In this document: positions 7,039-55,923 of the stretch, one piece after another
Numbering within the stretch: position 1 is the first letter of the stretch
How the letters are laid out: the number at the start of each line of letters is the position of its first letter
Origin: Acidimicrobiales bacterium
GTDB lineage: Bacteria > Actinomycetota > Acidimicrobiia > Acidimicrobiales > Bin134
Length of the DNA stretch: 64,000 nt
Direction of reading: 5' to 3'
NCBI GenBank assembly: GCA_965116535.1
Contig: OZ220703.1
Span: 1,807,353-1,871,352 of the forward strand
Position numbers and translations under genes: made by a program
Notes under the pieces: model-generated
The model's input: only the letters and a program-made list of their open reading frames with translations
The model's database searches: none
What the model was told of the DNA's origin: nothing

Positions 7039-7109
7039 AGCGGGTGACGAGAATCGAACTCGCGTCATCAGCTTGGAAGGCTGGGGTTCTACCACTGAAC
7101 TACACCCGC
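7039..7109 (-). tRNA. tRNA-Gly(TCC)
   Basis: GCGGGTGTAGTTCAGTGGTAGAACCCCAGCCTTCCAAGCTGATGACGCGAGTTCGATTCTCGTCACCCGCT cloverleaf; anticodon TCC; CCA not encoded; usual position divergent from tig. Confidence 0.95.
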
Positions 7110-40935: not shown

Positions 40936-42228
40936 TCAGCCTTCTAATGGGATGTTGTAGCGGGCGATGTAGTCGGTGAATTGGGCCCGGACAGAGGACT
41001 CGTCCAAGCCGAGGGCGGCCGGGTCGTAAACGTGTTTGCCGAACTTATCCTTGGGCTTGTCGGCCAGGTAGGCGGGGATGGCGGCAGCCAGCTCATCGGA
41101 GAACTCCAAGCCTAAGCGGTGGTATACGGCCCGCACCGCCGGCACTGGGTTGCTCACCAGATCCCGGAACAACAGGTCGGCGATCTGGTCGTCGGGTACC
41201 TCTCCCGAGGCCCGCTGGCCCATGACCATGTCCATGATCATCTGGTAGGTGAACAGCATCGTCGGGCCGCTCTCACTCGGGGCAACCGAATCGCTACGCA
41301 TCCAGTGAAGGGTGGTGGTGAGGTTGGCCACCGAGCCCAGAAACCTGATCGGGTCGCGATGGGTCAGGATCACCCGGGCATCGGGGTAGGCGGCAAACAG
41401 GTCCGGAAGCGTTCCCATGTGGGCGGGCGACTTCAACAGAAACCGAGCCGGAGCGCCGTCGATGTGCTGCAAGGTCCGCAGGAAGTTCTTGTGCCACCGG
41501 TACACCGCGCCGAAGTCGAGGTCCGCTCCACGAGCGCCCAGATTGCCGATGGAGTGCATCATCGGCCAGTGCCAGCTGCGGAACTCCGGCTGGCAAAAGT
41601 GGACGCACTCCACCGGCAGGTCGCTGCGCAGCTCGTGCATGGTCATGAACTCGGGCTGGATGTCGGCCCAAAACTCCTGCTCAGGCTCACTGCACGCCAG
41701 CGCATCGGCCCCAGATTCGGGCAGCGTGCCCAGCGGGAAGTGGGCCTCATATCCCCGCACCCCCCGCAGGTTGGGGTCCAGCGCAAGTAGTTCCAGCAAG
41801 ATGGTGGTCCCGGTGCGGGGCGGCCCCGACACGAACACCGGCGCGGCAACGTCAGCCGCGAGGGCCTCAGGATTGGCCCGCCAATAGTCCACCATCCGCA
41901 GCCGGTTTTGCAGATTGCGAATGATCTCCCCCCGGGCGCTGAGCCGCCCCACCACATTCAGTTGGGCATCTTCATTCAGCGCACCGCACAGCGCCCGATA
42001 ACCAGCCTCCCAACCCGGTTCGTCGCCCAAGTCCGACAGCCCCACCGACTCGACAGCCACGGTCAGCATCTCGTCGGCGTCCAGACTCACCATGCGAGCC
42101 GGATCGCCCACCGCGGTGCCGAACAGGTTGACCCGCCGCACCCAGTCTGGTCGGGGCAGGTGGCCGGTATGGTCCATGGCGCCGAACACTTCCGAACGCG
42201 TGTCGGTCCCGGATTCGATTTCTTTCAC
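40936..42228 (-). CDS. sulfotransferase (Sulfotransfer_3 family)
   Basis: SGPPRTGTT PAPS loop, LLKSPAH, THRDP; overlaps the ligase stop. Confidence 0.87.
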   Translation of the reverse strand: MKEIESGTDTRSEVFGAMDHTGHLPRPDWVRRVNLFGTAVGDPARMVSLDADEMLTVAVESVGLSDLGDEPGWEAGYRALCGALNEDAQLNVVGRLSARGEIIRNLQNRLRMVDYWRANPEALAADVAAPVFVSGPPRTGTTILLELLALDPNLRGVRGYEAHFPLGTLPESGADALACSEPEQEFWADIQPEFMTMHELRSDLPVECVHFCQPEFRSWHWPMMHSIGNLGARGADLDFGAVYRWHKNFLRTLQHIDGAPARFLLKSPAHMGTLPDLFAAYPDARVILTHRDPIRFLGSVANLTTTLHWMRSDSVAPSESGPTMLFTYQMIMDMVMGQRASGEVPDDQIADLLFRDLVSNPVPAVRAVYHRLGLEFSDELAAAIPAYLADKPKDKFGKHVYDPAALGLDESSVRAQFTDYIARYNIPLEG

Positions 42229-43841
42229 AATTGACCTCTGCCTTGGTGCCGACGGAACTGAATGTCACGGTACCTGCTCAGCTCATCGGCCAACTGCTCT
42301 TTGAGGCTTAGCCGCTTTGCCTTGCCGGTGACGGTGAACGGCACGTCGTCACCGAAGATCACCACTTTGGGGCAGTAGGCGAAGTCGAGTTGCTCAGCGC
42401 AGAAGTCCAGGATCTCTTGCTCGGTTGCCGGCGAGGCCTGCACCACATAGGCCGCGATCTCCTCGCCGTAGTACCGGTTCTCGAAGGGGACAGCCAATCC
42501 AAATTGAACGGATGGGTGGGCGTTGAGCACCTCGTCTATCTGGAACGGTGAGATGTTGATGCCGCCGCGGATGATCAGCTCCTTGATGCGCCCGGAGATG
42601 AAGAAGAACGGCGTCCCATCTTTGTTGGCCTCCCAGAAACCCTCGTCGCCGGAGTGGAACCAGCCGCCCTCGAAGGCGCTAGCTGTGGACTCTGGACGTC
42701 CGGCATAGCCGCCCATCACCGTGGCGCCCCGTATGACGATCTCCCCGCGCCTTCCCGCCGGGCACTGGCGGCCATCGGAGTCCTGAATCTGCACCTCCAC
42801 GTGGGGAACAGCTCTGCCGATGCTCGGGAACCCGTAGTCCAAGTACCAGGATTGGCGTTCGTCATCGGCCATGACTGGCATCATCGTGGCCACTGCGGTC
42901 ACCTCTGATAACCCGTACAGATGCCTAACCGGGATGGCGAAGTCGTCTTCGAAGGTCACCACCGTTTCCATCATGAGCGGCCCCGCTCCGCACAGCACCT
43001 CTTGGAAGCACGTCGGCGACGGCCCGCCGCCATCCGCGATGAGGAACTCAAGCAGGGTCGGAACGAGGCTGGAGACGGTGGCGCCCTCCGACTCGACATC
43101 GGTCCAGAATCGGTCAGACCGAAAGCGGTCGCACAGCACGGCCGAACCGCCCACATACCACGATTGAAGGCACGAAACCACCAGGCCGTTGACGTGGTGG
43201 ATGGGGAGCACCACGATGACCCGGGATTCGGCGTCCCACCCGGTGGCTCGAGCGAGGGCATCGCTGTCGGTGATCAGGTTGCCGACGCTGAGCTCCACGC
43301 CTTTGGGCTCTCCGGTGGTGCCGCTCGTGTATACCCGCAGTGCCGGGTGCTCCCACCCGCTCGCTGCCGCTGGCGCGACTGCCCCCACCGAGGCCACCTC
43401 ATCGAAGGGCACGATGGCTACGCCGGTCGCCTCGTGCAACTGCTCCGCTCGGCCCGCCTCGGCGGGGCTGTGTATGAGGATCCGGGCGTTGGCATGGGAG
43501 AGGATGAACCCTTGGCGATCGGGCGTCTCGTGGGCATTCAGCGGCAGGTACACCCAACCGTGGGTCCAGCAGGCGAAGGCCACCGCCAGCGCATCGGCAG
43601 CGTTGCCGGCCAGCACTGATACCGAGTCGCCGAGCTGGATTCCCCGAGCCGCCAATCCTGCCGCCGTTTCCGCCACCTGGGCCAGCCATTGCCCTCGCGA
43701 CCATTCATGACGGGTTCCGTGCTCGTGGTCGATCTCAGTCAGATAGGTGGCGTCGGTACGGCCAACGGCCTCATCGGCCAAGAACTCGCCGAATGAGCTC
43801 CAACTCGGCTGCCAATCGTCGACCGGATGCGATGGGCTCAT
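42225..43841 (-). CDS. AMP-dependent (acyl/aryl-CoA) ligase
   Basis: YTSGTTGEPKG, YGLSE, FHSGDEG, RIKELIIRGG, TGK. Confidence 0.88.
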   Translation of the reverse strand: MSPSHPVDDWQPSWSSFGEFLADEAVGRTDATYLTEIDHEHGTRHEWSRGQWLAQVAETAAGLAARGIQLGDSVSVLAGNAADALAVAFACWTHGWVYLPLNAHETPDRQGFILSHANARILIHSPAEAGRAEQLHEATGVAIVPFDEVASVGAVAPAAASGWEHPALRVYTSGTTGEPKGVELSVGNLITDSDALARATGWDAESRVIVVLPIHHVNGLVVSCLQSWYVGGSAVLCDRFRSDRFWTDVESEGATVSSLVPTLLEFLIADGGGPSPTCFQEVLCGAGPLMMETVVTFEDDFAIPVRHLYGLSEVTAVATMMPVMADDERQSWYLDYGFPSIGRAVPHVEVQIQDSDGRQCPAGRRGEIVIRGATVMGGYAGRPESTASAFEGGWFHSGDEGFWEANKDGTPFFFISGRIKELIIRGGINISPFQIDEVLNAHPSVQFGLAVPFENRYYGEEIAAYVVQASPATEQEILDFCAEQLDFAYCPKVVIFGDDVPFTVTGKAKRLSLKEQLADELSRYRDIQFRRHQGRGQL

Positions 43842-43870
43842 GCCGACGCCGGACCGCGAGCTGCCCGCTG

Positions 43871-45289
43871 CTAAGCAGCCAGCACCGGGGGATGTTGGAG
43901 GTGGTGATCGGTGGCCGACTGGAGCGCGGCTCCACAGTTGAAGAGAGTCGACTCGGCAAACGGGCGTCCGATGAGCTGCACACCCACCGGCATCCGATCC
44001 GCATCGAAGCCGCCCGGCACCGAAAGAGCGGGAAGCCCGGTGAGCGACGGCAGCCCGGTGAACTGCATGATCGCCGAAAGCATGTCCTCGTCCTCGCCGT
44101 CGATGTTGACCAGTGTCTCCCCCAGCGGCGTGGCCGTAAACGGAAGCGTGGGGCACACAATCACGTCGACTTCGGCGTAGGCCGCCAGCATTTGCTGGCG
44201 CAACAGCGCCCGGTAGCGCTGGGCCTGCACATAGTGGACGGCCGGAATCAGCTCTCCCACCTGAAGCAGCAGCCTCACATCGTCGGCATAGTCGTCGCGC
44301 TGCGAACGCAGCGTGCGCTGGTGGTAGGTGCTGGGTTCCACCGACTCAACCGTCAGCTGGGCGGAGATGTTGCCCTCGATATCGGGGATGGACACCTCTC
44401 TCACCACGGCGCCGAGGTCCTGGAACACCTCGACCGCCTCGCGAACCGCCCTTTCCACCGCGGCCTGCATGTGGTGGAGCGAATAGCCCTCGATCAATCC
44501 GACTCGCAGGCCGCTGACTCCGGCGTCGAGTCCGGCCACGTAGTCGTCCACCCCGATATCGGCAGTGCCCGGATCACGGGTGTCGTGGCCGGCCAACGCA
44601 CCCAGAAGAACGGCGCAGTCCCGAGCGCTACGGGCCATGGGTCCCACCGTGTCCATGCTCCAGGCCAGCGGTATTACGCCGGCGTTGCTGACCCGCCCGA
44701 TGGTGGGACGCAGTCCAGTGATTCCGTTGAGGGCGGACGGCAGCCGAACCGAGCCCCCCGTATCGGTGCCCAGCGCGCCGAAACAGGCTCCGGCCGCCAC
44801 CGCCACGCCGGAGCCGCCACTGGAGCCGCCGGGCATCCGCTCCTGGTTCCAGGGGTTCTTCACAAATCCGAAGGTGACGTTGGCGGAGGTTCCGCCCCAG
44901 GCGAATTCGTGGAGGTTGGTCTTGCCGATGATGATGGCGCCGGCCGACCGCAGACGCTCGACCACCGTGGCGTCGATGGTGGAGATGTTGTTTTTGAGCA
45001 CCGCGCTGCCCGCAGTGGTCAGCTTGCCGGCTACGTGGATGTTGTCCTTCAGGGCGATGGGAACGCCGTGGAGCGGCCCGATCCGGTAGCCGGCCTGGAT
45101 CATGGCAGCCGACGCTTCAGCCACTTCGAGGGCATCTTCAAACACCGAGATGTAGGCATTGGTGTCGGCGATGGCGGCGGCCTGATCCAGACATGCCCCC
45201 ACCAAATCGACCGGCGAGACCTCTCCAGCGGCCACCTGCTGCGCGGCCGTGGCGAGATCCAGCGTCAGAAGCTCGCCTGCGCCCGTCAT
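43871..45289 (-). CDS. amidase-signature family amidase (GatA/AtzE-like)
   Basis: LHGVPIALKDN, GKTNLHEF, GGSSGGS, GTDTGGSVR (Lys-cisSer-Ser triad). Confidence 0.93.
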   Translation of the reverse strand: MTGAGELLTLDLATAAQQVAAGEVSPVDLVGACLDQAAAIADTNAYISVFEDALEVAEASAAMIQAGYRIGPLHGVPIALKDNIHVAGKLTTAGSAVLKNNISTIDATVVERLRSAGAIIIGKTNLHEFAWGGTSANVTFGFVKNPWNQERMPGGSSGGSGVAVAAGACFGALGTDTGGSVRLPSALNGITGLRPTIGRVSNAGVIPLAWSMDTVGPMARSARDCAVLLGALAGHDTRDPGTADIGVDDYVAGLDAGVSGLRVGLIEGYSLHHMQAAVERAVREAVEVFQDLGAVVREVSIPDIEGNISAQLTVESVEPSTYHQRTLRSQRDDYADDVRLLLQVGELIPAVHYVQAQRYRALLRQQMLAAYAEVDVIVCPTLPFTATPLGETLVNIDGEDEDMLSAIMQFTGLPSLTGLPALSVPGGFDADRMPVGVQLIGRPFAESTLFNCGAALQSATDHHLQHPPVLAA

Positions 45290-45525
45290 CCCGATACTCC
45301 CACCATCTCGTGAGGAGCCATCCCTGTGGTGGTGTTGAACGTCTGGGCCGGCATCAGCTCTAGTACCGACTGCATCCGGGTGCTGAGGGCCACGGCACCC
45401 GGCATCCAGGCGCTGAGCAATTCGGCCACCTCCTCGGCGTCGGCGTCAGAAAGCGGTAGATCGATGAGCGCAGCAGTTGCCCTCACGTCATCCACGGTGA
45501 GTTGGGAACTCCGCACGTCACTCAT
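45286..45525 (-). CDS. small GatC/AtzG-like amidase partner (79 aa)
   Basis: LTVDDVRATAALIDLPLSDADAEEVAELL resembles the GatC N-terminus; overlaps both neighbours. Confidence 0.65.
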   Translation of the reverse strand: MSDVRSSQLTVDDVRATAALIDLPLSDADAEEVAELLSAWMPGAVALSTRMQSVLELMPAQTFNTTTGMAPHEMVGVSG

Positions 45526-45970
45526 TTGGCCTCCCGTCGCCCGCTTGGGGCGGGACTACAGCCACCGGCTCGCGCGCCGGCGGGTGGTCGTGAGAATTGG
45601 CCGGTGTCGACAGCACTTCGGCGGTGCGCTGGTCGAGTTCGTCGGAATCAAGCATGCCCTTGTCCTTCAACAACTGCTCCAGCGCCTCCATCCACCGGTC
45701 GTAGTAGCTCCATCCGGTGGTGGTGTCGTGTTCCGATTCCCATGCCTGGATAGAGCGGATCAACTCACCCTGGAACTCAGGCCAGTCGAAAGCTCCGTCA
45801 TTGTGCATGGCCGTGGCGATCGCGAAGGCGCGGATCTCCCAGGCGTGGTTGAAGGCCACGTCTCCCGATCGGCGGGGGATCTCCTCGTTGTAGGGCAGGT
45901 CGTCCACCAGGCGGTCGAGCCTCTCCCGTACTTCCGGAGGGACCACCTCGTTCATCGGAGGTATGGTCAC
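45518..45970 (-). CDS. nitrile hydratase accessory/activator protein (P14K/NhlE-like)
   Basis: FNHAWEIRAFA, FDWPEFQ, YYDRWMEALE, C-terminal HDH; downstream of nthBA. Confidence 0.9.
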   Translation of the reverse strand: MTIPPMNEVVPPEVRERLDRLVDDLPYNEEIPRRSGDVAFNHAWEIRAFAIATAMHNDGAFDWPEFQGELIRSIQAWESEHDTTTGWSYYDRWMEALEQLLKDKGMLDSDELDQRTAEVLSTPANSHDHPPAREPVAVVPPQAGDGRPNE

Positions 45971-45981
45971 ACCGACGGCCT

Positions 45982-46605
45982 CTACTCCGGAACGCTCACA
46001 TCAGTCAGCCCGATCAGTGAATCACGGGTGACGAGGGCGGCGAGTTCCTCCTCGCTCCATCCCTCGGTGCCCTCCGGACGCCGGGGCAGAATCCAGTAGC
46101 GAAGCTCGGCGCTGGAGTCCCACACCTTCACTTCGACGTCTGGACCTGGATCGAACCCGAATTCGGCCATCACGCCGCGGGGGTCCCGCACGGTGCGGGA
46201 GCGGTATGCGGGGTATTTGTACCAGTTCGGCGGGAGCCCGAGCACGGGCCACGGATAGCACGAGCAAAGCGTGCAAACCACGATATTGTGCACGTCGTCG
46301 GTGTTTTCGAGGACGATCATCTCCTCGCCTTGGATGCCCCCGATGTCGATCTGGCGACAAGCCGCGGTCGCGTCGGCTAATAGGAGGAGCTTGAATTCGG
46401 GGTCGACCCAGGCCCTAGCCGTTGCCCTCGCGCCAAGGTGTGGTCCAACCTCATTCTCGAACACTGACGACATGTAGTCGATCGCGTCGGAGGCAATGAG
46501 GTCCTTCTCCACCAGGATCGACTCCATCGCCTTGACGCGGGCGGCGATCTCCTCGTCGCTTCGGGGGAAGGTTCCAGCTACCGGGTGTGGCCCTTGCGTT
46601 GTCAT
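45982..46605 (-). CDS. nthA: cobalt-type nitrile hydratase alpha subunit
   Basis: [12 protein letters not shown] claw (Thr/Tyr = Co-type), [13 protein letters not shown]. Confidence 0.96.
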
Positions 46606-46667
46606 TTTGGTCTTCCTGTCTATTGAGAATCGGGGGTGTCGAAGAATCCGGCCGTTCTAAACGCCAC

Positions 46668-47342
46668 TCAGGCGGGCAGTAGATAGGGCTCCCACAGGTC
46701 GATGTAGACCGTGGTGTTGGCCCCCTCGTCGCCCCATAGCTCTTCACCAGTGAACTCCACGGTGTACACGTACTCGGAGCCCTCGCCCTCGCCCATGGCG
46801 TTGGTGTCGGGATAGACGTAGGAGCCGTGAAGGGTGGCGATGGTCCCGGTGCGCCCCCGCACGTAGCCGGCCCGCCGGGTGTGGCCCAGCGAGGGCCCGT
46901 CGACCACGGTGACCCTGTCGCCGGTGGCGAACTTGGCGGGCTCATCGTTGGGGCGGTGGTAGTCGTCGCCGGAGGCGATCAGCCCCTTCAGCGTCTCCAC
47001 CATCTCCGGCTTGCTGCTGGGGGGAAGCTGTTCGTCGGGGTTGTCCATGTAGTACTGGGTGCGCCGCTCGAGCTCGCCGGCGTCGAAAATGCCCCTCTCT
47101 ACGCCGTAGTGGATCATGGAGTCGATCCAGTGCTCGTAGTACCGCGCCGTGATGTAGTCGTGCGGGGGGATCTGCTCCATGCCGTGGCGGAATTCGTCGA
47201 GGTTGAACGCTCCGGCCATGGCCATGGCTGGGAACATCACCAAGACCGTTTTCTCCCAGTCGGAGTGGAAGATGGGCTCGTCATCGGGATGGTGGATTGG
47301 GCCGAATCCATGTCGGCCCCCGAGGTCGTGAATACCGTCCAT
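46668..47342 (-). CDS. nthB: nitrile hydratase beta subunit
   Basis: MDGIHDLGG, DEFRHGMEQ, YYEHW, HTRRAGYVRG, DLWEPYL. Confidence 0.96.
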   Translation of the reverse strand: MDGIHDLGGRHGFGPIHHPDDEPIFHSDWEKTVLVMFPAMAMAGAFNLDEFRHGMEQIPPHDYITARYYEHWIDSMIHYGVERGIFDAGELERRTQYYMDNPDEQLPPSSKPEMVETLKGLIASGDDYHRPNDEPAKFATGDRVTVVDGPSLGHTRRAGYVRGRTGTIATLHGSYVYPDTNAMGEGEGSEYVYTVEFTGEELWGDEGANTTVYIDLWEPYLLPA

Positions 47343-47371
47343 ATCAAGCGCCTCCTCGTCTTAAAGCTCCG

Positions 47372-47415
47372 ACCCTAGACCGCGCCTCGTAATGTGTCAA
47401 TCAGCATCGACCTAT
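47372..47415 (-). promoter_or_regulatory. nthB promoter with shared operator
   Basis: TTGACA-N17-TAGGGT on minus strand; 24-mer ATAGGTCGATGCTGATTGACACAT covers the -35 box. Confidence 0.75.
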
Positions 47416-47448
47416 AGACCTGACCGCTGAGCAGGGGCTTGCGAAGCG

Positions 47449-48870
47449 CTACGCCACTACCTCATCGAGCACTTTGATCACGTCTTCTTCGGCCCGGGCC
47501 AAGTACAGCCGCTGCGTGGCCATGTTGCGCTGGCCGACGCTTTCCTGGTCGGATTTGCGGGTCCGCCAGTCGGAGGCAAGGTGGCTGGGACCGGCGTCGG
47601 GGTGGAGCGCGGCCAGCTCGAGGTACTGCCTGATCGCCTCGTACACGTTGGTTGACAGCGAAGACAGCGGGGGCGCCCAGTGCCCGAAATGCTCCCGATA
47701 GGCCCGCAGCAGCTCTTTGTTGCCCGGACTCGACACGCTCTGGAAGTAGTTGAGGGCAGTCCAAATGCCATTGCCGGCTGCTGGGCCCACATGCTCCAAG
47801 GTGCATTCATCCATCACCAGCGACACTCGGCTGGCCAGGTCCCGCAAACCGGCCTCGCTGGCCTGCTGTTGGAACGCGACCTCGTCGGCGCCCACCAACG
47901 ATGACATCACCACATCGGCGCCCGAGGCGCGGATGCTATCGATGATCGGGGTGAATTCCCGGGTTCCCAGCGGGGTGAAGCGCTGGGCCACCACCCGGCT
48001 GCCCGACGCGTCAAGGATTCTGGCCGCGGCCCGATGGGCTCCGAACGACCAACTGTATTGCTGGCCCACCAGGAACCAGCGATTTCCTCCGGTCTCGCGC
48101 TCCACGATCCGCGACAAAGCGGCCATCTGGGCCTCAGGGCGCTCCCCGAACCGGATCACCTTTTTCGCCTCCATGCCACCCTCGTTGATCACGGGATGCA
48201 CCATGAGCACGTCGTGGACTTCGGCGGCCGCGGTCGCAGCGGCGAAGCTGGCCGATGTGACGCAGGCGAAGATGGCCTGACAGCCGGCCTCGATGAGCCT
48301 GACCGTCTCCCTTCGGGCCTGGACGTGGTCGGTGGCGTCGTCGGCGATCAGCAACTCGACGGGACGTTGGCCCACACCCCCGCTGGCGTTGACCTGTTCG
48401 ACGGCGAGCAGTGCCATGTACTCCGCGGCCATCGAGTAGACGGCTCCCGACCCTGACTTGCTGGTCAAAAGGCCGATCCGCCGGCCCCCGGTGGGTGCGG
48501 GCAGCGGCAGCGACGCTCCTCGATGGCGGGCCAGCCATTCAATGCCCTCAGAGGGCACCTGGGCCCGAAACCGCACCCGGGTTTGCGCCGCGCCGGTCCG
48601 CTCGAATTTGATGCGAAGCTGCCCTCGCCACGGCTGATCGTGCTCGATCACGATCTCCCGCCCCGGCAGAACAACCCGCAAGCGGCCCAACACCTGGGCA
48701 TCGCAGCCCCCGGGTAAATCTATGGCCACCGCGTAGCCGGGCGCGACCCGGTGACACCGTGCCCGGAACATCCACCCCGCGTCGTCTCGCCTGCCGAATC
48801 GCTCGAATGCCTCTGCCGGCGTCAGATTGACGTCAGCCTCACTCGACAAGGTGACGGTCGCGGAAGTCAC
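47449..48870 (-). CDS. cytoplasmic AmiC/NhlC-like amide-sensing protein with N-terminal SRPBCC-like domain
   Basis: no signal peptide; RIGLL..SG..VEQVNASGGV..ELLIADD..TSAS..NEGG..GE.P type-1 PBP fold; N-terminal about 110 aa SRPBCC-like. Confidence 0.75.
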   Translation of the reverse strand: MTSATVTLSSEADVNLTPAEAFERFGRRDDAGWMFRARCHRVAPGYAVAIDLPGGCDAQVLGRLRVVLPGREIVIEHDQPWRGQLRIKFERTGAAQTRVRFRAQVPSEGIEWLARHRGASLPLPAPTGGRRIGLLTSKSGSGAVYSMAAEYMALLAVEQVNASGGVGQRPVELLIADDATDHVQARRETVRLIEAGCQAIFACVTSASFAAATAAAEVHDVLMVHPVINEGGMEAKKVIRFGERPEAQMAALSRIVERETGGNRWFLVGQQYSWSFGAHRAAARILDASGSRVVAQRFTPLGTREFTPIIDSIRASGADVVMSSLVGADEVAFQQQASEAGLRDLASRVSLVMDECTLEHVGPAAGNGIWTALNYFQSVSSPGNKELLRAYREHFGHWAPPLSSLSTNVYEAIRQYLELAALHPDAGPSHLASDWRTRKSDQESVGQRNMATQRLYLARAEEDVIKVLDEVVA

Positions 48871-49226
48871 CCCACTGCCAGCTTCTCCTCGAATTGGTCG
48901 CGGGGCTCAGCAGTCGAAGCCGAGGCACTCAACTCGTCTGCGGCCTGCGTCATGATCCGCTGAAGGAAATCGAGCGCCTCGCGCACCGAACCCTCAGCGT
49001 CAAGCCGAACATACCGGTAGCGACCCACCTTGCGCTCCTGCACCACGCCGGAGGTGCGGAGAACCCGCAGATGCGACGACACTGTGGTCCTGCCGACCGA
49101 GTCGATTTGCTCCGTGATCTCCGACACGGTGCACTCGCCGTGCTCGCTCAAAATGGCCAATATCTGCCGTCGAACTCCGTCGGACAGGGCATCGAAAGCG
49201 AGACTCTCAGTTGATGGGCGCACCAT
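48867..49226 (-). CDS. ArsR/SmtB-family repressor (NhlD/CblA-like context)
   Basis: FDALSDGVRRQIL..CTVSEI..TVSSHLRVLRTSGVV..GRYRY. Confidence 0.88.
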   Translation of the reverse strand: MVRPSTESLAFDALSDGVRRQILAILSEHGECTVSEITEQIDSVGRTTVSSHLRVLRTSGVVQERKVGRYRYVRLDAEGSVREALDFLQRIMTQAADELSASASTAEPRDQFEEKLAVG

Positions 49227-49290
49227 GAAATCCTACACCTCGACCCTTCTATCGGCGCACATCAATGTGCTACATCGAAACATGAACCGC

Positions 49291-50325
49291 TCACTTCACC
49301 AGATTCTGCATACGACCCCGGTCGATGGTGACCAGCACAGCCAAGATGACCACAAGACCCCGAAGGATGTCCTGGGTGAAGATTGACACCCCAGTCACAT
49401 TCAGACCATTGCTCAGCACCGTCAACAGTGCCACCCCCAGAAGCGTCCGGGGCATGCCGCCCACACCACCGGTTAGGGCGGTGCCCCCGATCACGATGGC
49501 CGCGATCGAGTCAAGCAGGTATTGATTGCCAAGGCTCGGGGTGGCCGATCCGAGCTGGAGCAGCAGGATTGCCCCTCCGAATCCGGCGGTGGCGCCCGAA
49601 ACCATGAACGCCAGTGTCTTGTACCGCCGCACGGGCACTCCGCTCAACGCGGCAACGGGTTCGCCTGCCCCGATGGCCACCAAATACCGCCCGAATCGGG
49701 TGTAGCGGTTCATGAACACCAGCAGCACCCACACGATGATGGCGGCCAAGAAGGTGTTGGGGACATCGGGGATCAACTCGCCGCGGGCCAGCCACTCGAA
49801 GGGCAGCTCGTCTACGAAGACGGCCCGGCCCGACAAGATGTGCAAAGTGATTCCGGTGAAGATGGAAAGCGTTCCCAGAGTCACAATGAATGACGGGAGC
49901 CTCAGCGCGATGGAGCAGAACGCGTTGACTCCTCCCAGCGCCATGCCGATGAAAATGGTGAGGATGAACCCGGCTGTGCCCCAGCTGTGATCAGAGATTA
50001 ACACCGCGGCCGCGGCGGCGGACAAGGCCGCGATGGCGCCGACTGACAGGTCGATTGATCCCATCAGCACCACCAGCGTTGCGCCAAGCGAGATCATCAG
50101 CAGCGGCCCGGCCTGGGTGAGCATTACGTTGAGGTTGGTGATCGAGATGAAGCGTGATTCGAAGGCGGTGAACAGCCCGATCAGCACCGGCAGCACCAGC
50201 ACCGGGACCAGTGGACGTCCCCATCGCTGGATGAACTCCACCGTGCTGAGCACCATATCGGTTGGGCGAGCAGCGGCCCCGTCAGGGGCGGCTGGCTCGG
50301 GATCCAGAGTCTCGTTGTCTGCCAT
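49291..50325 (-). CDS. sugar-type (CUT2/RbsC-like) ABC permease
   Basis: GSIDLSVG, LPSFIVTLG, TRFGR..AIG..A.LSGV, IAAIVIGGTAL.GG.G. Confidence 0.9.
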   Translation of the reverse strand: MADNETLDPEPAAPDGAAARPTDMVLSTVEFIQRWGRPLVPVLVLPVLIGLFTAFESRFISITNLNVMLTQAGPLLMISLGATLVVLMGSIDLSVGAIAALSAAAAAVLISDHSWGTAGFILTIFIGMALGGVNAFCSIALRLPSFIVTLGTLSIFTGITLHILSGRAVFVDELPFEWLARGELIPDVPNTFLAAIIVWVLLVFMNRYTRFGRYLVAIGAGEPVAALSGVPVRRYKTLAFMVSGATAGFGGAILLLQLGSATPSLGNQYLLDSIAAIVIGGTALTGGVGGMPRTLLGVALLTVLSNGLNVTGVSIFTQDILRGLVVILAVLVTIDRGRMQNLVK

Positions 50326-50337
50326 CCGGCCTCTTCC

Positions 50338-51897
50338 CTATGTCATGAGCCCGATGACGTAGGCCTCATCGGGCTTGTTGTCTCGTGACGCGTCGACGGT
50401 CTCCACCAGACGGCCGCTCCTCATTACGAGGATGCGATCGCTCAAGCCGATCAACTCGGGCAGGTCGTCGCTGACGATGATGATGCCCGCGTGGGTTTCG
50501 GCCAGGTCACGCAGGATGCCGTAGATCTCCCCCTTGGCACCCACGTCCACGCCGGCAGTGGGGTTCTCCAGGATGAGCACGCCCGGCTCCCGGCGGATCC
50601 ACTTGGCCAGCGCAACCTTTTGCTGGTTGCCCCCGCTGACTTGCGAGATCTTCTGGCCGTCAGTCGCTCTGATGTCGAACTTGGCGATGGCGGCCTCGGT
50701 CTCGCTTCGCTCCAAACGGTTCTTCCACACGCCGCCCAGGTACACGAATCCATACTCATCGCGGTCTCCGCTGGGCAGTGAGAGGTTGAATCTCACCGAA
50801 TCAGCCTGGATGAGGCTGTCGGTGTGGCGGTCGGGCGATAGGTAGCCCAATCCCTTCCGCTTCATCCTCACGGTCGAGGCCCGATTGATTCCAGTGTCGT
50901 TAACGGTCATTTGGCCCTCATCCATGCGGTCGGCTCCCGCCAAGCTGCGGGCCAGCGACGATTTGCCGGAACCTAGGAGGCCCGCAATGCCCAGAATCTC
51001 ACCTTGGCGCAGATCGAAGCTGACGTTCCGGAAGAGAAATTTCTGCGCGTCAGCGCGGTTGTACTGGGCCCGATCGCGGCAGCCGGCGCCGCGCACCGAC
51101 AGCACAATGCGCTCCCTCAGTCCGCTGCCTTGGCGGTCCTCGGCGTGAAAGTCGGCCTGGCGAACCCGGCCGACCATCAGCTCGTGCAGTGTGCCCTCGT
51201 CGGTTTCCCCAGCGGTGGTCTCTGCCACCATCTCACCGTCCTTGAGCACAACGATGTCCTGGCAGACCTCCAGTACCTCCTTCAGTCGGTGGGACACAAA
51301 CGCCACCCCCAGCCCGCGGGTGGCCAACACGGTGACCATGGAAAGCAGGTGGGGCACCTCCTCGTGGCTCAGCGCCGCGGTGGGCTCGTCGAAGAGCACA
51401 AAGGTGCGGGGCAGGCCCAACACGTCGGGCACCGCAGTGGCCTTCACCGCCTCGGCAGCTTGGCGAATCGAATAGTTGAACTCGCTGGTGAGGCGGGTCA
51501 CGTCCACATGTATGCCGAATTCCTCCATCACCCTCTGGGCCTCTCGGATCATGCGGGTGCGGCTCAGAATGCCCCGATTGGTGAACGCAACCTCATGGCC
51601 CAGGAACAAGTTTTCGTACAGCGGTATGCCGGCTATCAGCGCGGGCTCCTGGAACACCCGCCAGATGCCCAGGGTGTTGGCCGCCTTGTAGGAATGGGGG
51701 TCGAACCCCTCGCCGTTGAGGAACATCACGCCCCGATCGGGCCTGGTGATGCCGCAGACGATGTTCAACATCGTCGACTTCCCCGCCCCGTTCTCACCCA
51801 CGAGGCCGGTGACCTTTCCTGGCTCAAATGACAGGGAGACGTTGTCAAGCGCCAACTGAGCGTCGTAGCGCTTCGTGACGCCCTCGATCCGGAGCAT
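50338..51897 (-). CDS. sugar-type (RbsA-like) double ABC ATPase
   Basis: GENGAGKST, FDEPTAAL, VSHRL, SGGNQQK, GVDVGAK. Confidence 0.92.
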   Translation of the reverse strand: MLRIEGVTKRYDAQLALDNVSLSFEPGKVTGLVGENGAGKSTMLNIVCGITRPDRGVMFLNGEGFDPHSYKAANTLGIWRVFQEPALIAGIPLYENLFLGHEVAFTNRGILSRTRMIREAQRVMEEFGIHVDVTRLTSEFNYSIRQAAEAVKATAVPDVLGLPRTFVLFDEPTAALSHEEVPHLLSMVTVLATRGLGVAFVSHRLKEVLEVCQDIVVLKDGEMVAETTAGETDEGTLHELMVGRVRQADFHAEDRQGSGLRERIVLSVRGAGCRDRAQYNRADAQKFLFRNVSFDLRQGEILGIAGLLGSGKSSLARSLAGADRMDEGQMTVNDTGINRASTVRMKRKGLGYLSPDRHTDSLIQADSVRFNLSLPSGDRDEYGFVYLGGVWKNRLERSETEAAIAKFDIRATDGQKISQVSGGNQQKVALAKWIRREPGVLILENPTAGVDVGAKGEIYGILRDLAETHAGIIIVSDDLPELIGLSDRILVMRSGRLVETVDASRDNKPDEAYVIGLMT

Positions 51898-51941
51898 CGC
51901 TACGCTCTTTCCCCCCTCACCTCGGGTAGCGGAATGGTGGA

Positions 51942-51985
51942 ACTTTACGCGTGAAGCACTGACACGTCAACAATGATCGACGTAT
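51942..51985 (-). promoter_or_regulatory. internal promoter for ABC ATPase/permease with shared operator
   Basis: TTGACG-N17-TAAAGT; 24-mer ATACGTCGATCATTGTTGACGTGT. Confidence 0.72.
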
Positions 51986-52040
51986 CGGGCAGTCCCATTC
52001 AGCCCTCGAGGAGGCTGGTCAGCGGGCAGATTTCGATGGA

Positions 52041-53468
52041 CTAAAGCTGAACTCCGGTGAAGTCGAAGTTGTCCATCTTGATCTTGTAGTGGCTCTCGTA
52101 GAGCGCGTCGGTTTCGGCGATACCCCCGGCCGCTGCCGCATCGGACCAGTCGGAGGGGAGTTGATAGCCGGAAGGCGGATCGGCGATCCCCACCCAGTAC
52201 TCCTCGAGGTGGATAGCGGCCAAGCTGGTCTGCGGATCCCAGTCGTCGGGGTTGTGCACCCGCGAGGCGAGTATGGGATCGAACGGGAGGCGGTTCTCAG
52301 CGCCGTAGTAGCGGCTGATAAGGCCGTCGACATTCTCCTGGGTGACGTGGATGCCGTTCACCCACATCTGCCGCTCGATCGGCCCGAACTCCACGCCTTG
52401 CAGCGTGTCGTACATGCGGGTGATCGGGTGGACCGCGAAGGAGTGGGGTCCGTGGAAGTTGGTGGAAAACACCTCGCCACGCTGGATATTCTCGAGAATG
52501 TCGGGGTTACCGTCCTGCCCGCAGAACAGCACGTCATCGCCCGGCGTGTAGCCCAGCCCCTCCGCGGCGGGGAGGACGCCGGTGAGCATGGCGTCGTTAG
52601 AGCAGGCCACACCGTCGGGCTTGCCGTGCCGTCCGACGAGGTCCTGGAACGCTTGCTGGGCGAGAACCGGATCCCAGCTTCCCGGCAGCTCGCCGACAAT
52701 GCTGAGGGTTGGGAACTCATCCACGGCCTGGTGGACGCCGGCCGTGCGTCGGAAGGCCAGCGACCCGCCGGGGAATCCGGCGATGTGGAAGATCTTGCCC
52801 TCGGCCGAGCCGAGCCGGTTCACGATCTCCTGGCACATGAGCTTGGTCGAGCCGTAGATGTTGGGCGGGTCGTGCAGGTCCCAGAACGCCGTGTAGAACT
52901 CGTTGGTGTCTACCGGCATGAACCACGGACCGGCGGCCCACATCTGGGAGTGGTAAGCCTCGGCCGGGGTGGCCGCCTGGTTGATGGGGCGAACCTCCGA
53001 GCCGTCGATGCCCGACACCCAGATCATGTTGTGTCCGCTGCCGATGTACTGGCGAGCCAGGTCCACAGAGTTCACGGGGTCGAGGTTGGTGTTGCCCTCG
53101 GTGTAGGCCGAAATGCCCAGAATCTCCACGCACTGCCGGCCGGCATCGGCCATTGTGCGGGTGTACTGGTTGGGCGTCAAGATGAGATGGGCCAGACGCC
53201 CCTCCTTGCGAGAGACCACCGCTACCGTCTGGGTGGGCGCTGCCGTGGCGGGTGCCGCCGTGGCCGCGGGCGCGGGCGCATCGTCGTCGTTACCACAGGC
53301 CACCCCGATCCCGGCCATAGCCAGGCCCACAGCAGACATCCGCAGCACATCCCGGCGGGACATCCCCTTAGTATCGAGGTGCTCCAAGATTGGATCGATG
53401 GTGCTGTTGTCACCGGGGGTCGGAACCGTGGAGGTTACAACCGATCTGGACTTTGAAGAGCGTGTCAT
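52041..53468 (-). CDS. sugar-type ABC substrate-binding lipoprotein with Tat signal
   Basis: SRRDVLR...GIGVAC; PBP1 motifs RTAG, W(DP), NDAML, GQDG; RBS GAGGGAAGG before ATG 53468. Confidence 0.85.
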   Translation of the reverse strand: MTRSSKSRSVVTSTVPTPGDNSTIDPILEHLDTKGMSRRDVLRMSAVGLAMAGIGVACGNDDDAPAPAATAAPATAAPTQTVAVVSRKEGRLAHLILTPNQYTRTMADAGRQCVEILGISAYTEGNTNLDPVNSVDLARQYIGSGHNMIWVSGIDGSEVRPINQAATPAEAYHSQMWAAGPWFMPVDTNEFYTAFWDLHDPPNIYGSTKLMCQEIVNRLGSAEGKIFHIAGFPGGSLAFRRTAGVHQAVDEFPTLSIVGELPGSWDPVLAQQAFQDLVGRHGKPDGVACSNDAMLTGVLPAAEGLGYTPGDDVLFCGQDGNPDILENIQRGEVFSTNFHGPHSFAVHPITRMYDTLQGVEFGPIERQMWVNGIHVTQENVDGLISRYYGAENRLPFDPILASRVHNPDDWDPQTSLAAIHLEEYWVGIADPPSGYQLPSDWSDAAAAGGIAETDALYESHYKIKMDNFDFTGVQL

Positions 53469-53563
53469 TGTGGCCTTCCCCTCTGTCATTTTCTGTGCCC
53501 CACAAGAGTCGCGGAACCGCGTGATTCCCTTGATTCCCTTGGTATATGGCCAGATTTCTTGGA

Positions 53564-53607
53564 ACCTTACGCCCAATCTGCCAACACGTCAACAGCTATC
53601 GACGCAT
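53564..53607 (-). promoter_or_regulatory. substrate-binding protein promoter with shared operator
   Basis: TTGACG-N17-TAAGGT; 24-mer ATGCGTCGATAGCTGTTGACGTGT. Confidence 0.72.
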
Positions 53608-53622
53608 TTATCCAGTGGCGTC

Positions 53623-53667
53623 ACCCGTCGATACCCATTGACCTATTGGCCTTCCTGTGGTTAGCCT
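53623..53667 (+). promoter_or_regulatory. cbtB promoter (leaderless) with shared operator
   Basis: TTGACC-N18-TAGCCT, ATG 6 nt later; 24-mer ACCCGTCGATACCCATTGACCTAT. Confidence 0.7.
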
Positions 53668-53673
53668 TTCGCC

Positions 53674-53895
53674 ATGAACTCCTCTGCCACCCAAGCCTTT
53701 AGTCCTTCTTCTGACGGCCGAGTGGCGGTCGGCGGAAAATTGTCGATGGTCGAGTGGGCATTCATGGCCCTAGCGCTGTTCGCAGTGCACATCTTGCTGC
53801 AAGAGAACGGGGTCTTGTTCTCCGACCAAATTGCCCAATATCTGCACGAGTTCACCCACGACGCTCGACACTCACTCGGCGCTCCCTGCCACTAG
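53674..53895 (+). CDS. cbtB: cobalt transporter subunit CbtB
   Basis: single TM then YLHEFTHDARHSLGAPCH. Confidence 0.9.
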   Translation: MNSSATQAFSPSSDGRVAVGGKLSMVEWAFMALALFAVHILLQENGVLFSDQIAQYLHEFTHDARHSLGAPCH

Positions 53896-53961
53896 TCATT
53901 TCACATGGCCATAGCGGTTGCGCTCCCTGCCACTAGTGATTTCACATGGCCATAGCGGTTG
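53880..53961. repeat. 41-bp tandem duplication of the cbtB/cbtA junction
   Basis: CGCTCCCTGCCACTAGT(C/G)ATTTCACATGGCCATAGCGGTTG x2, one mismatch. Confidence 0.92.
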
Positions 53962-54716
53962 AGACGTGGGCCCAGCGGCTTGGCCGCGGCGCAATCGCCG
54001 GCTTGGCCGGGGGTGCGGCCTCAGCCGTCGTCCTTTGGCTCGCCGTTGAGCCCTCCATCACCAAGGCCATCGATCTGGAAAATGCCGCCGTCGAGGGGCA
54101 TTCCCACGGCGACGACGGCGAGCTCATCTCACGAACAACGCAGATGATCGGTGGAACGGTCACTTCCATCGTGGTGGGTGTGCTGCTGGGCGTAGTGTTC
54201 GCGGTGGTCTACGCACGAGCCCAGCACCGTCTGGCGGGCTACACCGATCTCGGGCGATCGCTGAGCTTGGCCGCCCTCGCGTTTGCCGTTGTTGCGCTGC
54301 TCCCCGCCCTGAAAGTGCCGGCCAATCCTCCGGCGGTCGGAGATCCCGGCACGGTCAACGATCGGACGCTCACCTATTTGGCGATCATCCTGCTCGGGCT
54401 AGTGCTCGTAGGGGTTAGCTTCGCGGTCGCTCAAGCCGTACGTCGGCGGACAGATCGAGTTGAGCTGTGGTGGGCGGCCGGCATTGGGGCGGCCGTAGTC
54501 GGCGGCGTCTTGATCCTTTACTTGGCCCCCAGCGGCACCGTGGATATCCCGGCCACGATGCCTGCGTCGCTGGTTTGGAAGTTCCGCATCGCCTCACTTG
54601 GCCAGCACGCCGGTATGTGGCTCAACATCGCATTGGCCTACGGAGCCCTGGCACACCGGCGTTCGCTCGTTCGTCAGCCGAGCGATGCTTCCACCGCCGC
54701 GGCTTGGGCCGAATAG
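53946..54716 (+). CDS. cbtA: cobalt transporter subunit CbtA
   Basis: GAIAGLAGG, EPSI..AI..E, HSHG, ISR..Q, PALKVPANPPAVG, LVWKFRIASL. Confidence 0.9.
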   Translation: MAIAVETWAQRLGRGAIAGLAGGAASAVVLWLAVEPSITKAIDLENAAVEGHSHGDDGELISRTTQMIGGTVTSIVVGVLLGVVFAVVYARAQHRLAGYTDLGRSLSLAALAFAVVALLPALKVPANPPAVGDPGTVNDRTLTYLAIILLGLVLVGVSFAVAQAVRRRTDRVELWWAAGIGAAVVGGVLILYLAPSGTVDIPATMPASLVWKFRIASLGQHAGMWLNIALAYGALAHRRSLVRQPSDASTAAAWAE

Positions 54717-54765
54717 ACACCGACAGTTTCGCGTCGCCAGCTCGTCTGGCATGGTAAACGCACTG

Positions 54766-55923
54766 CTAAGTATCTGAAGCCAGGCCGAGTTCTCGGGAGA
54801 TGACGAGGCGTTGGATTTCGCTGGTGCCCTCGCCTATCTCGAGGATCTTGGCATCGCGGTAGAAGCGGGAGACCGGGGTTTCGTCGATGTACCCGTAGCC
54901 GCCGAAGATCTGGGTGGCGTCTCTGGTGGCGCTCACGGCGGCTTCGGTGGCATAGAGCTTGGCGATGGCGGCTTGTTTCTTGAACGGCAGACCGGCGTCT
55001 TTGCGGGCCGCGGCTGCATAGGTCACCTGTCGGGCAGTTTCTGCGGCTACCGCCATGTCGGCGCATTTGAAGGCGATGGCCTGGTAGCTGGAGATGGGCT
55101 TTCCGAATGCCTGGCGCTGGTTGGCGTACTCGGTGCACTCGTCCAAGCAGGCTTGTATGAGGCCCACGGCCAGCGCGGCGATGGCGATGCGGCCGTCGTC
55201 GAGAGTGGCCAGAAACTGGTGGATTCCCTGCCCTGGTTCGCCCAGCAAATTCCCTTCGGGTACCCGGCAGTCATCGAAGACCAGTCCGTGGGTGTCGGAG
55301 GCATGCCACCCCATCTTCCGATAGGCCGGCTCCACCACAAAGCCCGGCGAGTTTGACGGGACGATGATCGACGACACGCCGTCGTCGGTGCGGGCGGTGA
55401 CCGTTACCAGGCTGGTGATGTCGGTACCGGAGTTGGTGATGAACGTCTTGGTCCCGTTGATCACCCACTCCGGGTTTGCTGGTAATGAGCGATCGAGCAT
55501 GGCCTGGGTCTGGGTGGCCCCCGCGTCGGAGCCCCCGCCGGGCTCGGTAAGGCCGAATCCGGCCAGCGCCCGTCCTGCAACCAGATCGGGAAGGTACTGC
55601 TGCTTTTGGCTCTCGGTTCCGTATTGGTAGATCGGTTTGGCCCCCAGGCATACTCCGGCCTCCAAGGTGATCCCCATCGACTGATCGGCCCTACCGATCT
55701 CCTCGATGGCTATGCACAGAGTGGTGAAGTCGGCGTCGCTGCCTCCGTACTCCTCAGGGAACACCAGGCCGAACAGTCCGAGTTCGCCCATGGCCAGAAC
55801 CGTGGCGGTTGGAAAGACGTGGTCGCGGTCCCAGTCGGAGGCGTGCGGGGCGATCTCGCGGGCGGCGAAGTCGCGCACCACACTGCGAAACGCCTCCTGC
55901 TCCTCAGTGAAGAACCTGCTCAT
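54766..55923 (-). CDS. acyl-CoA dehydrogenase
   Basis: [50 protein letters not shown]. Confidence 0.93.

Follow-up and report, generated by a model that had tools for sequence, protein, structure and literature searches.

A shared dyad over the -35 boxes of four promoters in a nitrile hydratase island, and its link to an ArsR/AmiC-like regulator pair

Why do four promoters of a single island, which stand before a nitrile hydratase operon, an ABC importer, its binding protein and the cobalt supply genes cbtBA, carry one and the same short inverted repeat over their -35 boxes? The promoters lie in a window of 64,000 nucleotides (C1:1807353-1871352; the whole stretch of DNA that was analysed, to which unprefixed coordinates refer) of the Acidimicrobiales genome G000, a single contig of 3,697,415 bases (3.70 Mb) with 64% G+C. 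By the title of a near-identical locus, its genus is a sponge-associated acidimicrobial one. An earlier note, made from the letters of the window, had proposed that the four sites unite nitrile hydratase (NHase), importer and cobalt supply in one regulon under the local ArsR protein. We find a shared, unique and conserved cis-element that is linked, across lineages, to a gene pair encoding ArsR and an AmiC-like protein. The four sites are probably operators of the island's NhlD-type ArsR, which would be relieved through its AmiC-like partner. By sequence comparison the system is an ortholog of the ArsR-like/AmiC-like NHase regulators of Rhodococcus, and the regulon is solidly predicted. The nitrile hydratase clusters of Rhodococcus are industrial workhorses, and their regulators are reportedly known genetically since the 1990s.

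One site at four promoters

The exact pattern GTCGAT-N5-TTGAC occurs four times in the window, once at each of the four promoters (Table 1). Both the letters and the pattern search confirm the four 24-mers of the earlier note at the places and on the strands where it had put them, and the distance of 17-18 nt between the -35 hexamer and the TANNNT box is as it had said at all four promoters. Searched with up to one mismatch, GTCGATNNNNNTTGAC has four matches in the window, every one of them exact and all of them the four sites; 100 dinucleotide shuffles of the window gave 1.02 matches on average, 3 at the most and never four or more. In the genome as a whole the pattern has five exact copies (one for the reversed pattern, used as a control), the fifth lying antisense within an open reading frame (ORF) of 408 residues, and none of the 53 one-mismatch matches falls near the locus. 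With a weight matrix derived from six sites, the four reach 24.1-27.9 bits, against 20.9 bits for the best genomic sequence after them, which lies inside a 754-residue ORF. The earlier note had raised the possibility that GTCGAT is common before unrelated -35 boxes. Among the 28 TTGAC-N18-20-TAnnnT strings in the genome, GTCGAT stands five bases upstream in 4 (0.019 expected), and these are the four sites of the island.

What is conserved is a core of 16-20 bp, an imperfect 6-4-6 inverted repeat GTCGAT-N4-rTTGAC; the shared site over the -35 box therefore stands as claimed, and its length of 24 bp does not. The degenerate palindrome GTCRAYNNNNRTYGAC was given up as a stand-alone search pattern, being too frequent in coding DNA (9 sites in G000, 18 in Dietzia, 35 in R. 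erythropolis).

The AmiC-like proteins of five congener loci are 93-95% identical, and comparison with these loci shows a footprint-like pattern of conservation. The nthB and ATPase sites are present in all five, the nthB site without a single change, and the binding-protein and cbtB sites are kept in each of the four loci that reach far enough to be compared. Arms, -35 and -10 boxes are kept, while the sequence upstream of each left arm diverges and the 23 bp between the divergent binding-protein and cbtB sites drift. Likewise, the central spacer of the cbtB site reads ACCCA, GGCCA, ATCCA or GTCCA between unchanged arms. The earlier note's claim of shared control over four units is borne out by this footprint, by the uniqueness of the site in the genome and by the inheritance of the binding protein together with the regulator: of 25 genus genomes searched, six gave a match for ArsR, and the six of 40 that gave one for the binding protein are those very genomes.

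The ATG of cbtB (53674) begins 7 nt after the -10 box, and the cbtB transcript is therefore probably leaderless. Over and after the -10 boxes of the ATPase and binding-protein promoters lies a further common block, GCGTAArGTTCCA (51938-51950 and 53560-53572, minus strand), which is kept in congeners and may be either a copied promoter or a second control site.

The ArsR/AmiC-like pair and its sites in other lineages

Which protein would read the site? The island ArsR matches HTH_5 of Pfam with 39.2 bits (cut-off 22) and NF033788 of NCBIfam with 67.2 bits (cut-off 55), and its relatives in the PDB include 3f6v (E 1.3e-9) and SmtB (2.8e-4). Its recognition helix, GRTxVSxHLRxLR, is near-invariant in an alignment of 15 orthologs, and the ArsR of plasmid pNit of R. 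rhodochrous ATCC BAA-870 aligns with the same helix. The gene is followed by that of a protein which from residue 131 to residue 420 resembles urea- and amide-binding proteins and AmiC: Peripla_BP_6 scores 196 bits, and the PDB matches are 8tg1 (4e-32), urea binders (1e-20 to 4e-22) and AmiC itself (1pea, 2e-17). The equivalent of AmiC Ser85 is invariant (S206), and that of Tyr104 is H, Q or Y. No ANTAR/AmiR family member was matched among the Pfam-scanned ORFs of the island; the adjacent partner is ArsR.

The 130 N-terminal residues of the AmiC-like protein have no Pfam match, and sequence methods are silent or weak on them. The SRPBCC label that the earlier note had given to this domain holds, for the predicted model (pLDDT 83.2, pTM 0.74) has a helix-grip fold: with Foldseek, 157 PDB entries match at E<=0.001, headed by SMU.440, Aha1-domain proteins and Bet v 1 (TM 0.5-0.62), and the 50 matches listed are all of the Bet v 1/Aha1/START kind. 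Relatives of the domain number 92 among 1.84 billion representative proteins; about one third of them are 470-490 residues long and, by their length, are taken to be the same fusion.

AmiC-like relatives occur in 8 of 401 Mycobacteriales genomes, in 1 of 400 genomes of a phylum-wide draw and in eight plasmid records; identity is 68% in Dietzia sp. PP-33, 45% in the R. erythropolis group and 42% (over 89% of the length) in pNit. An arsR gene stands directly before the AmiC-like gene in every full-length case examined, with ArsR proteins 46-70% identical where measured; the exception is G399, where the AmiC-like gene is broken and no arsR gene was detected. The pair is found in NHase or amidase clusters of the window, Dietzia, R. 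erythropolis, seven further genomes and the plasmids pNit, pTC2 and pPE111, and no DNA-binding protein other than ArsR is shared by all the loci with the dyad.

In Dietzia and R. erythropolis the exact GTCGAT-acct-ATTGAC follows right after the AmiC-like gene, before nthA or an amidase gene, and a site in this place is also seen in five Mycobacteriales genomes, G1202 and pTC2. More distant loci have the element GTCAAT-nn-GTCnnn-N4-rTTGAC-ryG. Among 14 tabulated sites (the four of the window and ten in other lineages), 12 show an exact or near GTCnnn-N4-rTTGAC with TAnnnT 17-18 nt further on; the two that lack the TAnnnT box are G1202 and pTC2. On pNit the order is arsR, AmiC-like gene, nthB, nthA, accessory gene, NiCoT gene and amidase gene; GTCATT-gact-GTTGAC precedes arsR, and GTCATG-acgt-GTTGAC, followed after 17 nt by TAGGGT, precedes nthB at 815 nt from the AmiC-like gene. 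On pPE111 of R. pyridinivorans the amidase-NHase operon is convergent to the regulator pair, and a perfect GTCGAT-atct-ATTGAC lies at the far promoter of that operon, about 75 nt ahead of the first ATG and separated from the AmiC-like gene by 3.5 kb. The position of the site thus goes with the promoter to be controlled and not with the place of the regulator genes.

Counted over 14 lineages, GTC-N10-GAC occurs within 160 nt before arsR in 9 (expected 0.074 per stretch; binomial 7e-8), and 11 have it behind the AmiC-like gene at a distance of up to 130 nt (expected 0.06; binomial 9e-12); the lineages are kin, and both binomial figures are therefore overstated. Inspection by eye shows that, among the matches after the AmiC-like gene, those of G088 and one of the G000 pair do not represent the site. 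The three lineages without such a match are pNit and pPE111, where the site lies farther off at the operon promoter, and G215, which has no NHase downstream. An earlier 12-point scoring had given 7 of 10 before arsR and 8 of 10 after the AmiC-like gene. Two-fold symmetry is kept in GTCGAT-GCGG-ATCGAC of congener locus L009 and in GTCAGC-AACC-GCTGAC of G308. The dyad accompanies Co-type and Fe-type clusters in three orders and two classes; it reaches across Acidimicrobiia, Mycobacteriales and Micrococcales, and Paenarthrobacter is among its carriers.

At amidase and NHase promoters, and only there, a third half-site (GTCAAT, GTCGAT, GTCTAT or GTCATC) is found in the window and in loci L011, L012, L077-L083 and L085; read by eye, its GTC is present in 10 of 11 lineages. 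In pNit it makes a second, overlapping 6-4-6 dyad, and in G088 it pairs with the -35 arm as GTGTCAAT-N12-ATTGACAC, an outer dyad that is perfect, whereas the inner arm there is a poor match.

In the window, permease gene and arsR are 64 nt apart, and this gap holds a perfect palindrome, GCACAT-ca-ATGTGC (49257-49270), which is kept in four of five congeners (with one change in L008); L009 does not have it and carries its dyad further downstream in the gap instead, just before a TAGGAT box. Further dyads lie in R. erythropolis NBRC 15567 (L012), at 7087-7102 between divergent TetR and AraC genes upstream of aldoxime dehydratase and at 9484-9499 before arsR, and the regulon of Rhodococcus may extend to the aldoxime step. 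On R. pyridinivorans plasmid p_4-4_B (L088), where no NHase is close by, the pair precedes a FecCD-type ABC system; another arsR gene, near-identical to the first, has a GTCAAT-acct-CTTGAC site to itself. G000 itself has a second pair outside the window (C1:3232336-3234130; L089, L090), a paralogous ArsR and, after it, a protein with an SRPBCC-like part and Peripla_BP_6; their identities to the island pair are 37% and 32%, and the pair has an AMP-binding gene before it, a secreted Peripla_BP_6 protein after it and an ABC ATPase about 9 kb further. Here, as read by eye, GTGAGT-aatt-GTTGAC precedes arsR and the inverted repeat AGTATGT-N12-ACATACT precedes the next gene; in both placement and geometry these look-alike dyads agree with the island sites, but their left arm is different.

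Sign and signal of the predicted control

Because the right arm of the dyad is the -35 hexamer, an ArsR dimer on GTCGAT-N4-rTTGAC would, we propose, keep RNA polymerase off four otherwise near-consensus promoters. The SRPBCC-AmiC partner, translationally coupled to ArsR, would sense the amide product, and its contact with ArsR would relieve repression; the enzyme operon, the CUT2-type importer with its separately promoted binding protein, and CbtAB would then rise together. Binding by ArsR, the sign and the signal are inferred, in part from the genetics of R. rhodochrous J1, where the regulators of the L-NHase cluster (Komeda, Kobayashi and Shimizu 1996) are NhlD, reported to act negatively, and NhlC, reported to act positively, with amide as the inducer. 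What the ABC system carries is inferred as well. The earlier note had held that the local ArsR co-represses the four units. The assignment to this ArsR gains from the comparison of lineages; that it represses has to be read from the position of the sites and from family habit. More tentatively, the pair may be a self-contained, horizontally traded two-protein amide switch with a portable operator, GTC-N10-GAC over the -35 box, which in the sponge associate would have become wired to three further promoters, such that one regulator would co-induce a nitrile or amide uptake system, whose binding-protein family is almost without relatives, and the cobalt supply.

Several observations weigh against repression by ArsR from these sites. 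A strict sigma-70 scan calls only the ATPase promoter among the four (9 of 12) and in total makes 2 calls against 1.8 in shuffles, which is no excess; the -10 boxes of nthB, the binding protein and cbtB fail it, and these three predicted promoters rest on the laxer actinobacterial rule TAnnnT and on conservation. At the enzyme promoters the third half-site lies 8 bp upstream of the dyad, and in G088 it belongs to the perfect dyad; ArsR may therefore bind in another register. No clean dyad precedes arsR in G000 and in four of five congeners, where self-regulation would need read-through from the ATPase promoter. Nor does a specificity residue give help: Thr at residue 48 of the ArsR helix goes with GTCG arms in two separate branches, and a co-variation of this residue with the fourth base of the half-site was dropped, as the Ala48 lineages G194, G308 and p_4-4_B also have GTCG arms.

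Could the same proteins act on the same site in the opposite sense? Activation from a site centred near -39 by the ArsR-like and AmiC-like proteins, or control both ways, is in our judgement unlikely. The centre of the dyad lies about 38-39 bp upstream of the inferred start, near the positions of class II activators, and in the H-NHase cluster of J1 both regulators are reported to be positive, which counts against repression as well (the sign could differ). The -35 hexamers, however, are near consensus (TTGACA/G/C), in promoter-like strings of which the genome has just 28, and would need no activator; moreover, sites close to arsR overlie its promoter or start region, at 26-59 nt from the start codon, and ArsR-family proteins are repressors as a rule and habitually regulate themselves. 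A site bound by a regulator encoded elsewhere would agree with the missing clean site before arsR in G000, and ArsR binding is itself predicted; yet the motif travels with the ArsR/AmiC-like pair over two classes, on plasmids and chromosomes and with no other shared regulator, and 9 of 14 lineages have the dyad before arsR, which makes a foreign regulator quite improbable. Least probable to us is that the likeness stems from descent of copied promoter cassettes or from a sigma-specific extended -35 box, with no regulator at all. It would fit the ATPase and binding-protein promoters, which share GTTGACGTGT as well as the -10 block GCGTAArGTTCC (the 12 bases searched genome-wide), found nowhere else in the genome, and this block is a further point against a purely regulatory likeness. 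The nthB and cbtB promoters, on the other hand, share the dyad only; in congeners the central spacer drifts and the arms stay, and ahead of arsR genes the dyad is also present without serving as a -35 box, with its two-fold symmetry kept (L009, G308).

A question remains, does the regulon answer the supply of metal and not the amide? Metal sites of ArsR-family proteins are a Cys pair in helix alpha3 or a His/Asp/Glu set in alpha5. Among the 15 aligned orthologs we find no conserved Cys/His/Asp/Glu set: the single Cys32 is Leu in 3 of 15, and helix 5 has neither a conserved His nor a His/Asp/Glu cluster. A direct sensor of cobalt (or nickel) would nevertheless suit a regulon that includes CbtAB and a Co-type NHase, and it has a precedent in CblA of R. 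rhodochrous M8, which is described (PMC7689651) as a Co/Ni-responsive ArsR-SmtB member that represses a Co-type NHase promoter and de-represses it on Co/Ni. The island ArsR differs from CblA by lacking conserved metal ligands and by being paired with an AmiC-like sensor; the comparison was made through the ArsR at the CblA-like position on pPE111, and that protein is unrelated to the island-type ArsR beyond the helix-turn-helix (E 0.031). Given in addition that in R. erythropolis an NHase of the Fe-type (VCSLCSCT) stands under this pair and operator, direct sensing of cobalt by this ArsR is unlikely, about as much so as activation, and nothing supports a Co2+ response of the kind described for CblA, which the earlier note had cited.

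Known relatives, importer and cobalt supply

A close parallel in design is NhlD/NhlC of R. rhodochrous, in which an ArsR-like and then an AmiC-like gene stand ahead of a Co-type nthB-nthA-accessory cluster with a cobalt transporter and an amidase. The pNit cluster, which by its layout we take to be the equivalent of the J1 nhl cluster, carries the same dyad before arsR and over the -35 box of nthB, with TAGGGT 17 nt on. In the window, by contrast, the operator heads four separate promoters, cobalt uptake relies on CbtAB under its own promoter where the pNit cluster includes a NiCoT gene, an importer of the CUT2 type whose binding protein is rare is added, and the host is an acidimicrobial sponge associate. 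Another relative is the set of regulatory genes of the oxd-ami-nha cluster of R. erythropolis (Rucka et al. 2014, doi 10.1007/s10482-014-0179-3). There ArsR and the AmiC-like protein are 46% and 45% identical to those of the island, and the exact dyad before the amidase gene is followed 18 nt on by TAGTCT; this cluster differs in its Fe-type NHase, in an aldoxime dehydratase with AraC and TetR genes, between which lies a further palindrome, GTCGAC-tcct-ATCGAC, and in having no transporter under the motif. The AmiC/AmiR switch of the amidase operon of Pseudomonas aeruginosa offers a related sensor, a cytoplasmic protein with the type I binding-protein fold, whereas the partner in the window is a DNA-binding ArsR and not an ANTAR antiterminator, and the sensor has an added SRPBCC domain. 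Classical ArsR/SmtB operators are imperfect inverted repeats over the promoter that serve self-regulation. The island sites resemble them in being two-fold symmetric over the promoter and, in most lineages, in standing before the regulator's own gene; they differ by the half-site GTCrny, by the third half-site at enzyme promoters and by a signal that probably comes through a partner protein, not a metal.

No operator for Nhr1/NhlD was found in the open literature, and one may be printed in Rucka 2014, in the Komeda papers or in supplements. As far as the open literature shows, a defined operator for the ArsR/AmiC-like NHase regulators is new, as are its reach across Acidimicrobiia, Mycobacteriales and Micrococcales and its use at four promoters, including those of a rare importer and of CbtAB. 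A site of 16-20 bp could be useful for amide-inducible expression systems and for the prediction of regulons.

The importer consists of a Peripla_BP_4 binding protein, a BPD_transp_2 permease and a fused double ATPase, a make-up of the CUT2 (ribose-like) type. All NCBIfam equivalog matches score far below their cut-offs (for example RbsA 339 against 745 bits, RbsB 33.8 against 337) and thus point to no particular substrate. The binding-protein family is rare: 11 relatives at E<=1e-20 were obtained among 8000 candidates scored, two metagenome scans returned nothing, and the one match among 401 Acidimicrobiia genomes drawn was G000 itself. An Atlas search with this protein gave generic Peripla_BP_4 clusters only, and a stretch of about 35 residues before its twin-arginine motif is conserved. 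That the ABC system belongs to the NHase pathway, as the earlier note had claimed, is favoured by the predicted shared control and by co-inheritance. The site ties this rare importer and CbtAB to the enzyme, which makes the importer a candidate for the uptake of a nitrile or amide; on the more tentative reading given above, no substrate importer would have been assigned to a nitrile hydratase pathway before it.

CbtA is clear in Pfam (157.6 bits, cut-off 30.7), and CbtB falls just below the cut-off (26.7 against 27). CbtAB usually stands under a cobalamin riboswitch. An Rfam E-value scan of 43000-56000 gave no match, neither a riboswitch for cbtBA nor another structured RNA in the leaders. The supply of cobalt would be coupled to the metalloenzyme through a shared promoter element, not through a riboswitch or a metal sensor. 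Such coupling is a recurrent theme, as judged from gene neighbourhoods, because cobalt transporter genes accompany the pair elsewhere: cbtBA lies inside the operon of G194 and a NiCoT gene in the pNit cluster. FecCD-type ABC genes occur near the pair in Dietzia, pPE111 and p_4-4_B. The island is set apart by its wiring, a promoter for cbtBA alone that bears the common site.

The genes under the four promoters are listed in Table 1. The motif of nthA is the signature of a Co-type NHase, and the island shows that sponge-associated Acidimicrobiia can carry such an enzyme. An NHase activity in sponge that is specific for aeroplysinin-1, of sponge or symbiont origin, is on record (PMC3766881), and on the more tentative reading the island could underlie nitrile turnover in sponges.

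Table 1. Sites (probable operators), predicted promoters and genes of the island (window coordinates; right-hand column, sequence elements or basis of assignment)
Feature	Position	Strand	Remarks
Operator, nthB promoter	47396..47419	-	16-bp core GTCGAT-gctg-ATTGAC 47396-47411; extra upstream half-site GTCTAT 47414-47419
nthB promoter	47372..47400	-	-35 TTGACA 47395-47400; 17-nt spacer; -10 TAGGGT 47372-47377
Operator, ABC ATPase promoter	51966..51981	-	GTCGAT-catt-GTTGAC; -35 TTGACG 51965-51970; 17-nt spacer; -10 TAAAGT 51942-51947
Operator, binding-protein promoter	53588..53603	-	GTCGAT-agct-GTTGAC; -35 TTGACG 53587-53592; 17-nt spacer; -10 TAAGGT 53564-53569
Operator, cbtB promoter	53627..53642	+	GTCGAT-accc-ATTGAC; -35 TTGACC 53638-53643; 18-nt spacer; -10 TAGCCT 53662-53667
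Unit 1, nthB-nthA-accessory-orf79-amidase-acyl-CoA ligase	42225..47342	-	Pfam, NCBIfam, translation; genes abut or overlap
nthB	46668-47342	-	Pfam/NCBIfam
nthA	45982-46605	-	VCTLCSCY motif in translation
NHase accessory protein	45518-45970	-	Pfam/NCBIfam
orf79	45286-45525	-	Overlaps accessory stop and amidase start
Amidase	43871-45289	-	Pfam/NCBIfam
Acyl-CoA ligase	42225-44156 (ORF)	-	True start probably later
Unit 2, ATPase-permease-ArsR-AmiC-like	47449..51897	-	Pfam/NCBIfam; predicted co-transcription
Double ABC ATPase	50338-51897	-	Pfam/NCBIfam
BPD_transp_2 permease	49291-50325	-	Pfam/NCBIfam
ArsR, 119 aa	48867-49226	-	Stop overlaps GTG start of AmiC-like gene
SRPBCC-AmiC-like protein, 473 aa	47449-48870	-	Peripla_BP_6/AmiC-like domain from residue 131
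Unit 3, Peripla_BP_4 binding protein	52041..53468	-	About 475 aa from ATG 53468; Pfam and alignment; twin-arginine and lipobox-like N-terminus
Unit 4, cbtB and cbtA	53674..54716	+	cbtB 53674-53895; cbtA 53946-54716; Pfam

A terminator scan found no terminator-like sites between the genes of Unit 2, which are probably co-transcribed. In Unit 1, orf79 matched no family in the Pfam and NCBIfam scans and has no likeness to the small ORF ahead of the pPE111 amidase; Dietzia has a counterpart at the same place, 49% identical over 70 residues.

The island spans about 42241-54658 (12.4 kb). Congener G001 has it in one piece elsewhere on the chromosome, and the genes that flank it in the window adjoin each other in G022, in G023 and at a further G001 locus; the island thus moves as a single block. 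Between its proteins and those of Dietzia sp. PP-33, a member of a different class, identity is 68-77%, and a tree of AmiC-like proteins groups G000 with Dietzia at 100/100, which points to transfer of the island between the classes, in one direction or the other. The G+C content of the island, 0.638, equals that of its surroundings, and a repeat search found no terminal repeats at its ends.

Three small features lie beside these genes. A hairpin at 52000-52017, after the stop of the binding-protein gene, was rejected as a terminator: six pairs are kept, with no compensatory change, and the terminator scan made no call. A tandem 41-bp unit at 53879-53961 (2.0 copies, 97% match) spans the stop of cbtB and the start of cbtA and so gives rise to a short decoy ORF ahead of cbtA; a search of four congener loci with 11 nt of this unit found no match. 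The leader of the binding-protein gene, about 90 nt long, contains a 9-bp repeat at 53522-53541.

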